From positions 67,503 through 131,502 of the forward strand of contig JAQVJU010000002.1 of the NCBI GenBank assembly GCA_028694995.1: a stretch of 64,000 nt of DNA, read 5' to 3'. This document shows positions 19,349 through 63,588 of this stretch, one piece after another (position 1 is the first letter of the stretch; each line of letters starts with the position of its first letter). The translations under genes and the position numbers were made by a program. This DNA comes from Minisyncoccota bacterium (GTDB lineage Bacteria; Patescibacteriota; Minisyncoccia; UBA6257). Below the pieces are notes generated by a model that saw only the letters and a list, made by a program, of their open reading frames with translations, was not told where the DNA came from and searched no databases.

Positions 19349-20053
19349 TGTGATATGATAATATAGATATTAGGATATTGATATTATTCTATCGTTCGTG
19401 AGTTATCTATAATGCTATAATACCAAAAATTTTAATTTTTAGCAACGATAATAAAGGGAGTTCCTTTGCGTTGCCCGCGCACGAGAAGGGTGAGGCAACA
19501 GCAACATCATCTATGGCGGCGCATTTTGCTTTGCAAAATACGCTCTCCAAGTCCGCCGAAAAAAGGTCGGCCCAAGCTAGGGCGAGACGTAAGGGGGGTG
19601 TGGAGGGAATTCCGCCTCGCCTGAGCCGAAGCGAAGCTCCGCCGCCCTGCTCGTTCAGAGCAGACCGCTAAAGAAATCTGAAAGATTATCGATGATCTCG
19701 GTTTGAAGGGGTGGCGAGATTATTTACTTTCCGTTTCAAATTATCAATATCTTTTGCAAAATCCGTTATATTACGGATTGATAAGATATAACGGCAATTT
19801 TACGAAGAAAAGCAATAATCGGTTCAAACTCGCCGCCTGATTCATAAATACCGTAAAACAAGCCAAAATTATCGCTTTGTAAGAAAATTCCGAATAGAGT
19901 CGGGATTTTCTAAAAAAAATTGGTTCGAACTTCCGTTTGAGCGGGCAGAAATTATTTTTGGATTTCAAATTTCCCTTCAAAATCCTCGCTGAAGCCGAGC
20001 CCCGCCTTTGGCGGGGCGAGGCAACAATCGCCCAAAATTCGAATTTTGAAAAT

Positions 20054-20143
<90 letters not shown>

Positions 20144-20186
20144 ATTTCTTATCCTTGTATTTTAAAGGATAAGAAATTTATTCTGC

Positions 20187-59957: not shown

Positions 59958-59986
59958 TTGACAAAATCATAAAAAAGTTCATAATA
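59958..59986 (+). promoter_or_regulatory. sigma-70-like promoter for rSAM cassette
   Basis: TTGACA-17 nt-ATAATA about 40-70 nt upstream of rSAM start. Confidence 0.4.
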
Positions 59987-60025
59987 ATTATATAAAGAAC
60001 CTTGAAAATTTAAATAGGAAAGAAG

Positions 60026-61129
60026 GTGATAAAAATGTTTTACCAACCAGTTACAACTCCCATTATTAAACCAGTTAATGGAATGTGTAATTTATCCTGT
60101 TTATACTGCTACACACTAAATCTAAAGAAATATACTGATAAAAATATGATGTGCCCAAAGACACTAAGAGCGACTATTGATTTCTTTTGCGCTGATCAAG
60201 ATGATATTGAATTTATTTGGCATGGCGGCGAACCTTTACTTGCAGGACTAGAGTTTTATCGTAAAATAATAAAAATTCAAAAAAACTGGAAATTAAAAGG
60301 AAGAAGAATAACAAATACCCTTCAAACTAATGCTACCCTTATCACCCCTGAATGGGTTAAATTTTTTGCTGAAAATGATTTTTTTATTGGTGTAAGTTTA
60401 GATGGACCGAAAGAGTTTCATGATCAATTACGCACTTACCCCAATGGTAAAGGATCATATGATGACGTTATGAAAGGTATTAATTTATTACGTCAAGCTA
60501 AAATATTCAATGGAGTTATTTGTGATATAAGTACTGTTAATTACAAATTTCCTAAAGAAATTTTTAATTTTTTTATCCTAGAAGATATAAAAAAATTAAA
60601 ATTCACTAGAGTAAAAAGTATTGGTCATTGTAATAATGTATCTTCGCTAGCTATTTCCCCTGCGCAATACACAGATTTTATGATTACTATCTTTGATCAT
60701 TGGCTTGATTTAGATGATCCAGAAATTGAAATTCGGGATATACAAAGTGTTGTTAATTTAATTTTAGGAGGAAATAGACGTGAATGCATCTATATGGGAC
60801 AATGCGATCAATTTGTTACTGTTTATTCCGATGGTTCAATTTACGGCTGTGATTCTTTTCCTAAAATAGATGAACTGTATTTTGGCAATATATTTGAAAA
60901 GCCAATTAAAGTTAGATCAAGCCCTCATTTACTAGCTTTTCGAAAACTACTAAAGGAAAGAAAGGAATTTTGTCAAACCTGTGATTGGTACTTTATATGC
61001 CAAGGAGGGTGTGCAAAAGATAATTACGACCAATTAAACTCTATTCAGCCACTAGATGAGATATGTAAGAATTTACAACGATATTTCAAGCATATATCAA
61101 CTAAAATACAATCATATAACCTTGTTTAA
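60026..61129 (+). CDS. radical SAM enzyme with C-terminal SPASM domain (anSME-like peptide-modifying maturase)
   Basis: 'CNLSCLYCY' CxxxCxxC, 'WHGGEPLL' SAM motif, SPASM 'CIYMGQCDQF...GCD' and 'CQTCDWYFICQGGC'; true start may be ATG at 60035 after RBS AGGAAAGAAGG. Confidence 0.85.
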   Translation: MIKMFYQPVTTPIIKPVNGMCNLSCLYCYTLNLKKYTDKNMMCPKTLRATIDFFCADQDDIEFIWHGGEPLLAGLEFYRKIIKIQKNWKLKGRRITNTLQTNATLITPEWVKFFAENDFFIGVSLDGPKEFHDQLRTYPNGKGSYDDVMKGINLLRQAKIFNGVICDISTVNYKFPKEIFNFFILEDIKKLKFTRVKSIGHCNNVSSLAISPAQYTDFMITIFDHWLDLDDPEIEIRDIQSVVNLILGGNRRECIYMGQCDQFVTVYSDGSIYGCDSFPKIDELYFGNIFEKPIKVRSSPHLLAFRKLLKERKEFCQTCDWYFICQGGCAKDNYDQLNSIQPLDEICKNLQRYFKHISTKIQSYNLV

Positions 61130-61185
61130 CTAAAAATTACCTTATTTCATTTAACTAAAAAGGAGGTAAAGAATTATGTTAAATG

Positions 61186-61353
61186 ATGCTTGCACCTTAA
61201 AGGAGAATCCCATCATTATTCCTAAGGTTTTAATTGAAGCAAAAAAAGAAGTAAATATCCTAACTTCAAACAAAAGACAGCCTTGGGATAAAGCTTGGGA
61301 AAAAGGCCCTTGGGATAAAGGACATTGGGCTAATAGAAAGTAATGCTCTTTCT
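61186..61353 (+). CDS. putative RiPP precursor peptide (55 aa), core PWDKAWEKGPWDKGHWANRK
   Basis: not in ORF track (below size cutoff); AGGAGG at 61171-76, 9 nt before ATG; same strand, 56 nt after rSAM stop; terminator follows. Confidence 0.55.
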
Positions 61354-61370
61354 TCTCCAAAGCCTCTTCT

Positions 61371-61407
61371 AAAGATTCAGAAGAGGCTTTTTCTTTTAAT
61401 ATTTTAT
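61371..61407. terminator. bidirectional rho-independent terminator closing the rSAM-peptide cassette
   Basis: AGCCTCTTCT-aaagattc-AGAAGAGGCT-TTTTCTTTT. Confidence 0.65.
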
Positions 61408-62259
61408 GGCTCCTAATAAATCTCTAAGATAATCTTCATCAATTATTTTATAATCTTTTAGGTATAATCCTGTGATTTTATATAATTTATATGCAATAAA
61501 CTTCCTCCATTCTAATAAATCCTTGGGTTTTGATTTAAAAGGAATAACTATTGTTTTTAAATATTTCTCACTTAGATAACCTTCTGGAATAAATGAACTA
61601 ATCAATAATTCTTCTAGAAACATTTTGGCTGGCATATTTTTACTTAGTTTTATCAACAATTCATTATTTTTCTCAGCTATCTTAGTAATTTTCAAAAATA
61701 AATCTTCATTCTTTCTTAATATTAAATGAAAAAATTCATGGGCTAAAACTGCTAAAGGAAAAAAATCCTTAGGGATTTGAAGATTAAAAGGAATTTCAAC
61801 TACAATAAAACTATTTTTTGGTTCCCAGGAAAACCAAGCATTTATCTCTTTATCTTTACTTGTTAAATCAGAAACAAGATAAATAGGTACTCTAGAAATT
61901 AAAAAATTATTTATTCCACTTAATTTTTTTATTTTAAAGATTACTTTTTGAAACAACGATTCATTATCTAGAAAATATTGTTGCCATGAAAGTAAATGCT
62001 TATATGCTTTATGCCAATATATATCAAATTCTTTATCTAATAAAATAATTGAATTTTGTATTTCTTTTACATTATCTTTCCCAATATTCTTTTCAATTTG
62101 TTTCCATATTTTATCCTCCTTTTCCCCATAAAAAGACAAACTAACCTTTTCATCTAGCAAATATTTTTGTAAATCTGATTTATTAAACTTTACTCTATTT
62201 GATTTTTGAGTAAAAAATAAGAGATTAGATAAACGAGAAATTTTAATTGATAAACTCAT
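61396..62259 (-). CDS. hypothetical protein with HExxH motif (possible zinc peptidase)
   Basis: 'LAVLAHEFFHLI'; convergent with cassette. Confidence 0.45.
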   Translation of the reverse strand: MSLSIKISRLSNLLFFTQKSNRVKFNKSDLQKYLLDEKVSLSFYGEKEDKIWKQIEKNIGKDNVKEIQNSIILLDKEFDIYWHKAYKHLLSWQQYFLDNESLFQKVIFKIKKLSGINNFLISRVPIYLVSDLTSKDKEINAWFSWEPKNSFIVVEIPFNLQIPKDFFPLAVLAHEFFHLILRKNEDLFLKITKIAEKNNELLIKLSKNMPAKMFLEELLISSFIPEGYLSEKYLKTIVIPFKSKPKDLLEWRKFIAYKLYKITGLYLKDYKIIDEDYLRDLLGAIKY

Positions 62260-62595: not shown

Positions 62596-63588
62596 TTAAA
62601 AAGTTTCTTTACTACCGTCTTCGTAAATAATGGTATTAACTTCCCATTTGTATTGCAGATTCTGTAATTCTGTATTCTTTAGCTTAACGTCTTTATCAAT
62701 AAACTGATTATAATCTGTTCCCACATTCAACCAGGTATTACTTCCATTAGCTGAGATTACTTGGTCATAGCCTACGTTTACTGCCTTAATTTTATTGTCA
62801 AAAATATCATAAAATGTAAGCACCCCCTGGACCCCTCTTATATTCTTATCTGTCTTATTAGTGAATTTCAAATCCATAGTGATTTTGTCTTGGTAATCAC
62901 CTGACATATAATCGGCTTCGTGAAATCCTTTTTTGGTAATTTCAAGTATAACTTTATCTACTTTTACTTGATTCTGATCAAAGCCCGATATATCGGTCTG
63001 ACCCGCACCACCTTGTTGCAGATTTTTATTTACTTCGGATGCCTTACTTAAGTTCTGCACGCTTGCCACGAAACCCATAATAATTGCCAAAACGACGATG
63101 GCAACTAAGGAAAGGACAAGACCGTGTTTATTGGACAAAGTTTCAGGCTGTTCAATCTCTGACGCCTCTGCCTTCTTATCATACTTGTTTGCTATCAAAT
63201 GCAGAATAACTCCCCCCGTAAGACCAATTACAAAAGACAAAACTATTACAAACATCCCGCCAATCGCTGTCCCAAACGCCGCTCCAACTTGCTCAAATTC
63301 GTTAGTGGTTGAGATTATAGCTTTTGAACCTAAAACAAATGTAAACACCAAAGAAGACACGGGGAGCAAGAAAAAAGATATTTCGGTTGAACGGAAAAGT
63401 CTCTCCACAATATGATTCTTTTCAGTAAATTGCCAAACGCTCCAAATCATTAAAACCCAAATAATCAAAAACGCCCAGCCAAGATAGGTATTAAGTGTCA
63501 TCAAAGCATAATTTTGCGTAAAAATAAGAGCTGGCAACAGAGCCAAAAGAATTTTAAGAACTATGTGTTTTTTATATTGATTTTCCAT
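62596..63588 (-). CDS. membrane protein with C-terminal extracytoplasmic domain, hypothetical
   Basis: ~5 TM then 150-aa soluble domain. Confidence 0.4.
   Translation of the reverse strand: MENQYKKHIVLKILLALLPALIFTQNYALMTLNTYLGWAFLIIWVLMIWSVWQFTEKNHIVERLFRSTEISFFLLPVSSLVFTFVLGSKAIISTTNEFEQVGAAFGTAIGGMFVIVLSFVIGLTGGVILHLIANKYDKKAEASEIEQPETLSNKHGLVLSLVAIVVLAIIMGFVASVQNLSKASEVNKNLQQGGAGQTDISGFDQNQVKVDKVILEITKKGFHEADYMSGDYQDKITMDLKFTNKTDKNIRGVQGVLTFYDIFDNKIKAVNVGYDQVISANGSNTWLNVGTDYNQFIDKDVKLKNTELQNLQYKWEVNTIIYEDGSKETF

Follow-up and report, generated by a model that had tools for sequence, protein, structure and literature searches.

The peptide gene and its locus

We examined a 64,000-nucleotide stretch (the window) of contig JAQVJU010000002.1 from a Minisyncoccota bacterium (assembly GCA_028694995.1, positions 67,503 to 131,502 of the forward strand) and, within it, a 55-codon open reading frame (ORF) near the right end. 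This ORF is a real, strongly conserved gene. It belongs to a compact cassette of three genes that encode a radical S-adenosylmethionine (SAM)/SPASM enzyme, the peptide, and, on the opposite strand, a protein with an HExxH motif. We think it probable that the peptide is the precursor of a triceptide-like RiPP (a peptide made on the ribosome and modified after its translation), the type of cross-link being assigned by comparison with related systems. The features of the locus, numbered from the first base of the window, are as follows:

59958..59985, plus strand: promoter-like site TTGACA-16 nt-CATAAT, 11/12 matches in a consensus scan, 5' of the operon formed by the radical SAM and peptide genes
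60035..61129, plus strand: radical SAM/SPASM peptide maturase gene, 364 amino acids (aa), Pfam Radical_SAM 3.6e-18
60086..60109, plus strand: CX3CX2C radical SAM cluster motif (C18, C22, C25), invariant in an alignment of 15 sequences of 44-76% identity
60785..61066, plus strand: SPASM domain with cysteines C251, C257, C272, C313, C316, C322, C326 and C344
61161..61166, plus strand: Shine-Dalgarno sequence AGGAGG, read from the sequence, 9 nt 5' of the peptide ATG
61176..61343, plus strand: probable precursor peptide gene, 55 aa and TAA, from ORF translation, homologues and codon variation in the core
61221..61253, plus strand: conserved leader element P16-K-V-L-I-E-A-K-K-E-V26, from the family alignment
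61281..61340, plus strand: putative core PWDKAWEKGPWDKGHWANRK with four aromatic-X-X motifs
61311..61340, plus strand: family-defining C-terminal decapeptide W-D-K-G-H-W-A-N-R-K, a single copy in the window
61359..61390, plus strand: intrinsic terminator hairpin with a 12-bp stem and 8-nt loop followed by a T-run, between the convergent genes
61396..62259, minus strand: convergent gene for the HExxH protein, 287 aa, predicted zincin-like fold, no assigned family
61726..61740, minus strand: HEFFH motif with invariant H174, E175 and H178 (full-length numbering)

Translation of 61176-61343 on the plus strand gives MLNDACTLKENPIIIPKVLIEAKKEVNILTSNKRQPWDKAWEKGPWDKGHWANRK, 55 aa from ATG to TAA, with a computed monoisotopic mass of 6449.44 Da when unmodified. 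The original prediction, made from the sequence alone, quoted this peptide exactly, with its four Trp among the last 20 residues; the plus-strand ORF it described is present, but the coordinates it gave (61186-61353) were off by 10 nt. The Shine-Dalgarno box it had pointed out lies where it said and is kept, with AAAGGAGGTG found 5' of the peptide gene in all six of the related loci examined. Its description of the ORF as unannotated holds in a relative sense, since an identical protein has been deposited as 'hypothetical protein PHH35_02045 [Candidatus Pacebacteria bacterium]'; this protein comes from a metagenome-assembled genome (MAG) and occurs on 11 contigs. Pacebacteria fall within Minisyncoccota in current taxonomy.

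The terminator hairpin begins 16 bases past the peptide stop codon and has a minimum free energy of -17.5 kcal/mol (z = -3.9 against shuffles). A hairpin lies at the same place 3' of the peptide gene in the six related loci, with a different sequence in each. The promoter-like site is a consensus match only, and the region as a whole has no more such sites than shuffled sequence would be expected to have.

Among 5.8 billion clustered proteins, 31 relatives of the peptide were found, nearly all of 51-60 aa, and a profile search of 1.84 billion representatives gave 68 matches at E<=1e-3, nearly all of 36-87 aa. The distinct homologues number about 90. Two profile matches, P0312 and P0319, were unrelated repeat proteins and were set aside. 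No curated family in Pfam or NCBIfam was found for the peptide, even at E<=10 for the 31 members. The DNA pattern of the core occurs once in the window, compared with 0 occurrences in 100 shuffles; with the profile matches, this places the ORF well outside chance. No second copy of the core exists within the 64 kb; the other loci likewise carry one copy of the peptide gene each. We compared the last eleven codons among 26 distinct DNA versions and found that all synonymous codons of Pro and Gly are used, that Asp, Lys, His and Asn each appear in both of their codons, and that Arg appears in four. Since the codons vary synonymously and the residues do not change, strong purifying selection acts on the peptide at the protein level, in the plus frame.

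A 69-aa antisense ORF with a TTG start (61151-61360, minus strand) is open in this window and in none of the related loci examined. That this ORF is the expressed product, or that the region is a structured RNA, is so improbable that we regard both ideas as refuted. The antisense frame is interrupted by stop codons in 6/6 related loci, which rules it out as the gene; its TTG lies inside the terminator hairpin sequence with no spaced Shine-Dalgarno box; and third-position variation agrees with the plus frame. There was no Rfam match at the peptide region, the only Rfam matches in the window being a SAM riboswitch and two tRNAs. The earlier choice of the plus strand as coding, and the remark that the antisense ORF has no ribosome-binding-site support, are thus both borne out, and the stops dispose of the minus-strand product, whose expression had been named as one finding that would refute the proposal.

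The leader, the core and the family signature

Across the family, the leader element has the consensus (I/V)P(K/R)VLLQAKKEA, and a linker that varies comes after it. Two residues, P16 and L19, are invariant, four more (K17, V18, A22 and K23) are conserved in at least 90% of the sequences, and the shorter motif [PS]x[VT]L is present in 83/89 peptides. This segment, P16 to V26, is presumed from its conservation to be the part recognized by the enzyme. Division of the peptide into a leader and a core, as first proposed, fits these data; the boundary placed at Q35|P36 was a guess, and the conserved leader element is residues 16-26.

The core of the window peptide contains the aromatic-X-X motifs W37-D-K39, W41-E-K43, W46-D-K48 and W51-A-N53, an overlapping H50-W-A52, and no Cys or Ser. 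The original prediction stressed the PWDK/W[DE]K repeat. This is not the conserved feature of the family: the number of W-x-[KNRQED] motifs ranges from 0 to 6 per peptide (two or more in 86/89), and in the shortest members nothing repeats upstream of the final module. The near-invariant element, and hence the signature of the family, is instead the last ten residues, W-D-x-G-H-W-A-N-R-K. The C-terminal end W-[DE]-x-G-H-W-x-x-R-x is present in 83 of the 89 distinct peptides, and among these 83 the third residue of the first putative signature ring is K in 62, Q in 14, E in 5, D in 1 and N in 1. In the last putative ring the middle residue is A in 80, with S, T and E once each, and the third residue is N in 81, R in 1 and K in 1. 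The signature Trp residues, Asp, Gly, His and Arg are therefore fixed, and the third ring positions vary only among residues that have a beta-methylene. The decapeptide is unchanged at loci where the maturase falls to about 45% identity and the HExxH protein to about 29%.

The radical SAM/SPASM maturase

The maturase gene ends 46 nt upstream of the peptide gene. A mechanical ORF list starts it at GTG 60026, but that GTG is part of AAGGTGA, the ribosome-binding site for ATG 60035. All close homologues have 364 aa and begin with MF(Y/C)Q at the equivalent of this ATG; these observations indicate that ATG 60035 is the true start. Seven of the eight SPASM cysteines are invariant in the 15-sequence alignment and C344 is conserved in at least 90%; eight should suffice for two auxiliary Fe-S clusters. 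C52 and C163, which belong to neither the CX3CX2C nor the SPASM motifs, are also invariant across the maturase family. The enzyme is a complete radical SAM/SPASM protein, and it has no N-terminal extension in which a separate domain for peptide recognition could lie. Its whole length aligns with the anSME structures 4k37/4k36 (E about 3e-51), and the radical SAM domain of the triceptide synthase ChlB is a further PDB match (1.5e-25).

Among NCBIfam models the enzyme scored highest with anSME TIGR03942 (286.1 bits; equivalog cut-off 349.45), followed by DynA NF041298 (268.7 bits over the full length; cut-off 450). Scores with the cyclophane-synthase models, given as score/cut-off, were 170/310 for GrrM/OscB TIGR04261, 96/450 for XyeB TIGR04496, 136/370 for FxsB TIGR04269, 153/445 for YhhB NF041707 and 130/425 for AmcB NF041718. 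The similarity to all of these models extends over the full length. Since all NCBIfam scores are below threshold, the window maturase is, on these models, outside every curated family.

The HExxH partner

Besides H174, E175 and H178, the invariant residues of the convergent protein are E216, E217, S221, S222 and E226 in later helices, and R252 (numbering in the alignment, where the query lacks Met1, is one lower than this full-length numbering). Its 158 homologues are all unnamed and without Pfam domains. Searches with 43 members gave no match beyond noise in Pfam, NCBIfam (E<=10) or PDB sequences; the noise-level Pfam matches were to DUF5700 (0.099) and Peptidase_M48 (0.016), in two to three of the 43. 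A Foldseek search against the PDB returned nothing better than E 0.49. An AlphaFold2 model made with 43 sequences (pLDDT 90.5) is helical at its N-terminal end; a sheet of three strands comes next, then the helix with HExxH, and then more helices, which bear invariant Glu, with E216/E217 on helix 210-220. According to this model the protein has the layout of a zincin, with an invariant HExxH helix after a small sheet and a later Glu.

Conservation of the cassette and its hosts

Loci were gathered through the peptide, through a scan of species-representative genomes (25 loci), and through metagenomes scanned for a degenerate pattern of the core (62 loci), and linkage was counted over 68 distinct peptide loci. 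In 51/57 assessable loci the radical SAM gene is the immediate upstream neighbour, on the same strand as the peptide; it is nearby in another order in 4 and is absent from 2. The HExxH gene is convergent and directly downstream in 62/64 assessable loci. The genes around the cassette differ among loci. All-against-all clustering of the ORFs of 36 loci for further cassette genes (exporter, RiPP recognition element (RRE) protein, immunity) recovered only the radical SAM and HExxH families, a third cluster being an antisense ORF inside the radical SAM gene. A radical SAM/SPASM gene 46 nt upstream and a trio kept in dozens of otherwise unrelated neighbourhoods, neither of which the original prediction had drawn on, strongly support its view that the peptide is a RiPP precursor.

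Almost every record that carries the cassette has a Patescibacteria title (Parcubacteria group, Paceibacterota, Ryan-, Portnoy-, Jorgensen-, Kuenen- and Wolfebacteria), and many labels of 'uncultured Candidatus Saccharibacteria' on third-party annotation assemblies may be generic. Three contigs of 2.4, 2.6 and 10.3 kb (L013, L025 and L027) with the cassette or part of it come from MAGs labelled Heimdallarchaeota or Gammaproteobacteria; the radical SAM enzymes of L013 and L025 are 70-72% identical to the window enzyme. These labels probably reflect binning contamination and not the true hosts.

Some loci depart from the usual arrangement. In L067 (960-2990) the order is peptide, radical SAM gene, then the HExxH gene on the opposite strand, and in L033 (5001-7343) it is peptide, convergent HExxH gene, then radical SAM gene. 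In the rearranged loci L033, L067 and L089, maturase identity is 39-45% and HExxH identity 29%, with the core unchanged. Three cassettes look as if they are decaying: L005 (5379-7086), L006 and L032 (4900-6050) have an intact peptide and core with no detectable upstream radical SAM gene, and the HExxH gene is split into fragments in the first two and shortened in the third. Several longer radical SAM or HExxH homologues (P0024, P0072, P0085, P0023, P0202 and P0193) were considered as natural fusions and rejected; they look like mis-called starts, read-through or frameshifted C-terminal ends.

A second lineage with the same core

Three peptides from the profile search (P0304, P0307 and P0328) have a longer leader, ..VSRVLxxD....EGLIxSY.., joined to the same core, ..WDKGPWD[EQ]GHWANR[KR]. 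Their loci are the following:

L098, 153-1648: second-lineage locus
L099, 1588-3195: second-lineage locus
L101, 145-1657: second-lineage locus

Here the peptide gene comes first and the radical SAM gene follows, and no HExxH homologue was found at the three loci. The contigs have 49-54% G+C, compared with 27-36% in the window, and the second lineage, which is non-Patescibacterial, is therefore not the same kind of organism. A scan with TIGR04261 (GrrM/OscB) covered the enzymes of L099 and L101, which scored 360.6 and 354.5 bits, above the cut-off of 310. Four genes downstream in L099 (334, 448, 219 and 277 aa) had no family match.

In this lineage the shared core is thus the presumptive substrate of a bona fide member of a characterized family of enzymes that form three-residue cyclophanes (3-CyFEs). 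Because the same core adjoins threshold-passing GrrM/OscB enzymes, W-D-x and W-A-N are the likely ring-forming motifs in the window peptide as well, and we regard this pairing as the strongest single support for the triceptide interpretation.

Proposed chemistry and alternative explanations

That the peptide is the substrate of the adjacent radical SAM enzyme is very probable. Our confidence that the rings are specifically of the triceptide type, judged from sequence comparison, is moderate, and we infer the type and positions of the cross-links, the leader boundary, the role of the HExxH protein and the biological function. Triceptides are defined by aromatic-X-X motifs with a link from the aromatic residue to a beta-carbon (PMC11499958). 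The window precursor has such aromatic(1)-X2-X3 motifs and a radical SAM/SPASM maturase is encoded next to it; this maturase belongs to no characterized 3-CyFE family. OscB links Trp C7 to the beta-carbon of Asn or Asp at i+2 (PMC11002830), and both W-x-N and W-x-K rings are documented in xenorceptides (bioRxiv 10.1101/2024.12.16.628070).

We propose that the operon, with its promoter-like site, radical SAM/SPASM gene, peptide gene and terminator, would yield enzyme and substrate together. The radical SAM enzyme would bind the leader and, in each Trp-X-X motif, abstract a hydrogen from the third residue (K39, K43, K48 and N53) at its beta-carbon. Joining of each beta-carbon to the Trp indole would then give four strained three-residue cyclophanes, with a loss of 2 Da per ring and about 8 Da from 6449.44 Da in all. 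The convergent zincin-fold HExxH protein would next remove the leader or, alternatively, oxidize ring residues, and the product would be a peptide that is small, cationic and polycyclic, with its last ten residues the same throughout the family.

Leader removal is the most likely role of the HExxH protein, given the modelled gluzincin layout and because the partner tracks the leader type and not the core, being absent from the three loci with the other leader. Alternatively, by analogy, the protein could perform a ChlH-like oxidation of the invariant Asp or His within the rings. ChlH hydroxylates Asp and His inside pre-formed cyclophanes (PMC12636437), which is a precedent for an HExxH protein acting as an oxygenase. 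By sequence, the window protein falls outside the alpha-ketoglutarate-dependent HExxH family to which ChlH belongs (IPR026337; ChlH, BpmH, PflC), as it gave no NCBIfam, Pfam or PDB sequence match.

Several points weigh against the triceptide interpretation. The window enzyme is under the cut-off of every cyclophane-synthase model, its best model is anSME (286 vs 349), and it is only about 27% identical to the GrrM-type enzymes found beside the same core. Other W-x-K/R chemistries are known, among them those of WgkB and WprB (C-gamma), and of StrB on another spacing (PMC11851443), and the motif therefore does not reveal the ring topology. Ring formation by itself leaves the invariant Gly and His and the R-K tail unaccounted for. 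Sequence comparison places the HExxH protein in no peptidase family (Pfam or MEROPS-type models, 43 members), and no exporter or immunity gene is linked in the 36 loci.

As a rival explanation, the upstream enzyme might modify the RiPP precursor by darobactin/dynobactin-like chemistry and not by uniform three-residue C-C rings. It might, for example, join Trp to residue i+3 by C-C, link His by N-C or form an ether bridge, and the rings might be fused or overlap across G-H-W-A-N. DynA is the second-best NCBIfam model after anSME (268.7 bits), well above GrrM/OscB (170) and XyeB (96); the core is, as in dynobactin, a C-terminal decapeptide that starts with Trp, has Arg at position 9 and also includes another aromatic residue, Asn and His; and dynobactin carries Trp C6-Asn Cbeta (i, i+3) and His N-Tyr Cbeta links (PMC11002830). 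The invariant His is unexplained by simple W-x-x rings, and since H-W-A overlaps W-A-N, fused rings are conceivable. We nevertheless consider this chemistry rather unlikely: the DynA score is below its cut-off of 450, the residue at i+3 is Gly after W46, which has no beta-carbon, and Arg after W51, the core has no Tyr for a His-Tyr link, and the same core is paired elsewhere with GrrM/OscB-family enzymes, OscB being a maker of i, i+2 rings (PMC11002830). An ordinary small protein or non-functional ORF beside an anSME-type enzyme with an unrelated substrate is very improbable and largely refuted. The enzyme's top NCBIfam and PDB matches are indeed anSME and the peptide is in no curated precursor family, but the anSME score is below its cut-off, the core offers no Cys or Ser for formylglycine formation, and within about 5 kb of the cassette neither a sulfatase nor any other gene family turns up repeatedly (the search for sulfatases was confined to these neighbourhoods and did not extend to whole genomes). 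Peptide and enzyme are moreover adjacent in 51/57 loci, with 4 more in rearranged order, and the peptide is under strong protein-level purifying selection.

A different possibility concerns the fate of the product: the peptide might be the precursor of a fixed intracellular molecule (a peptide-derived cofactor or a metal-binding or structural peptide; compare PqqA/PQQ and MftA/mycofactocin) and not of a secreted compound, with the HExxH protein as processing enzyme. The ten C-terminal residues are near-invariant even at about 45% maturase and about 29% HExxH identity, and with both leader types and both maturase clades; each locus, the window included, has a single copy, with no linked exporter, immunity gene or regulator; and the cassette is kept in many reduced Patescibacteria genomes. 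Yet ten fixed residues are many more than known cofactor precursors such as PqqA and MftA need, the variable number of extra upstream W-[DE]-K units better fits a multi-ring peptide, no cofactor-using partner enzyme recurs nearby, and the radical SAM gene is lost or the HExxH gene broken at some loci (L005/L006, L032), so that the cassette is dispensable. We judge this explanation quite unlikely. Somewhat less doubtful, though still unlikely, is a bolder proposal in which the cassette makes a functionally fixed molecule and not a variable antibiotic: a cross-linked decapeptide with one conserved role in Patescibacteria (for example host-cell attachment or manipulation, metal binding, or a peptide-derived cofactor) and no dedicated exporter, on whose invariant Asp/His the HExxH partner would perform non-hydrolytic Fe/alpha-ketoglutarate-type chemistry, and whose core would have been captured by two unrelated leader/maturase pairs in unrelated bacteria. 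The triceptide-like precursor remains the explanation that we favour.

Other features of the window

A 330-aa predicted membrane protein (62596-63588, minus strand) is encoded beside the HExxH gene; nothing above noise level links it to a family. It is probably unrelated to the cassette, because it does not recur beside the cassette in other loci. Almost all long ORFs of the window are on the minus strand, and the operon of the radical SAM and peptide genes (60026-61343) is among the few plus-strand units; GC skew is negative throughout the window and about 0 in 60001-62000. The SAM riboswitch (RF00162, 76.8 bits) lies at 1064-1175 on the minus strand, upstream of a minus-strand ORF of 317 aa (43-996). 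A listed ORF of 124 aa (19771-20145, minus strand) overlaps the tRNA-Ser(GGA) gene at 20054-20143 on the same strand and is probably spurious.

Significance

The genomes of Patescibacteria (Candidate Phyla Radiation, CPR) are tiny, and these bacteria are usually considered to have few natural-product pathways. That many of their lineages retain a three-gene peptide-modification cassette with a near-fixed core suggests that its product is important to the biology of Patescibacteria. The literature search found no paper linking Patescibacteria/CPR to this radical SAM system, and in none of the papers searched did the core strings GHWANR, WDKGHW and WDQGHW appear as a peptide sequence, the few matches being unrelated medical papers. 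We conclude that the family is previously undescribed and that the kind of system is known, namely a radical SAM/SPASM enzyme with a Trp-X-X precursor and an HExxH-fold partner, which has precedent. What is unusual is the host group, the minimal exporter-free layout of three genes, and a near-invariant decapeptide common to two unrelated leader/maturase pairs.

At about 2.3 kb, the cassette is a minimal and easily synthesized system for radical SAM cyclophane chemistry. The occurrence of one core with two maturase clades (about 27% identical) and two unrelated leaders bears on the substrate specificity of radical SAM enzymes, and the HExxH partner adds a new, unclassified family with a predicted zincin fold to RiPP pathways, in which such proteins can be oxygenases rather than proteases. 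Darobactin, dynobactin and the xenorceptides are Trp-cyclophane peptides and BamA-targeting antibiotics. Its proposed kinship to these compounds makes the product worth making, and bioactivity is, by analogy, possible.

Comparison with known systems

The highest similarity of the window enzyme, by both hidden Markov model and PDB comparison, is to anSME (TIGR03942, 286 bits; PDB 4k36-4k39, E 3e-51). The two are of the same size, lack an N-terminal RRE extension and have comparable sets of eight auxiliary-cluster cysteines, and the anSME reaction also begins with abstraction of a C-beta hydrogen. The window enzyme differs in falling below the equivalog cut-off, in lying next to a peptide without a Cys/Ser-x-Pro-x-Arg site, and in having no linked sulfatase gene.

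Of the peptide-maturase models, that of dynobactin (DynA NF041298) scores best with the window enzyme, at 268.7 bits over the full length, and in both systems the core is the C-terminal decapeptide of the precursor, with Trp first and with Asn, His and Arg. The score is nonetheless under the cut-off of 450, and the window core, with Gly at i+3 after W46 and no Tyr, does not offer the Trp-Asn (i, i+3) and His-N/Tyr-Cbeta links of dynobactin (PMC11002830).

Xenorceptides (XYE systems; XyeA-XyeB, XncB) have three-residue W-x-N and W-x-K rings, joined from Trp C6 to Cbeta, in a C-terminal core such as WVNAFARWSKSF (bioRxiv 10.1101/2024.12.16.628070), and a peptide with multiple rings, as is proposed here. 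The window enzyme scores 96 with XyeB against a cut-off of 450, and the aspartic protease, HlyD protein, protease-transporter and Gly-Gly leader site of XYE clusters (bioRxiv 10.1101/2024.12.16.628070) are all absent from the cassette.

ChlB is a fusion of a radical SAM cyclophane synthase with an alpha-ketoglutarate-dependent HExxH beta-hydroxylase, the ChlH domain (PDB 8s5f/9gm3). Its radical SAM domain matches the window enzyme, and ChlH targets Asp and His in cyclophanes (PMC12636437), while the window core has an invariant Asp at ring position 2 and an invariant His. The HExxH partner here is, however, a separate convergent gene with no sequence match to the alpha-ketoglutarate-dependent HExxH family, and the lineage with the same core and another leader has no such partner, which is a better fit to a leader-linked role.

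The GrrM/OscB triceptides (TIGR04261; OscA/OscB) differ from the present system in that the window maturase reaches 170 bits where 310 is the cut-off and shares only about 27% identity with the second-lineage enzymes, in that the window precursor matches no curated Gly-rich-repeat or other precursor model, and in the standalone HExxH partner and the Patescibacteria host. The two systems are alike in having a short precursor with several aromatic-X-X motifs spaced by Gly and a radical SAM/SPASM maturase of about 360-380 aa, and where the identical core occurs in the second lineage, the enzyme used there exceeds the TIGR04261 cut-off.

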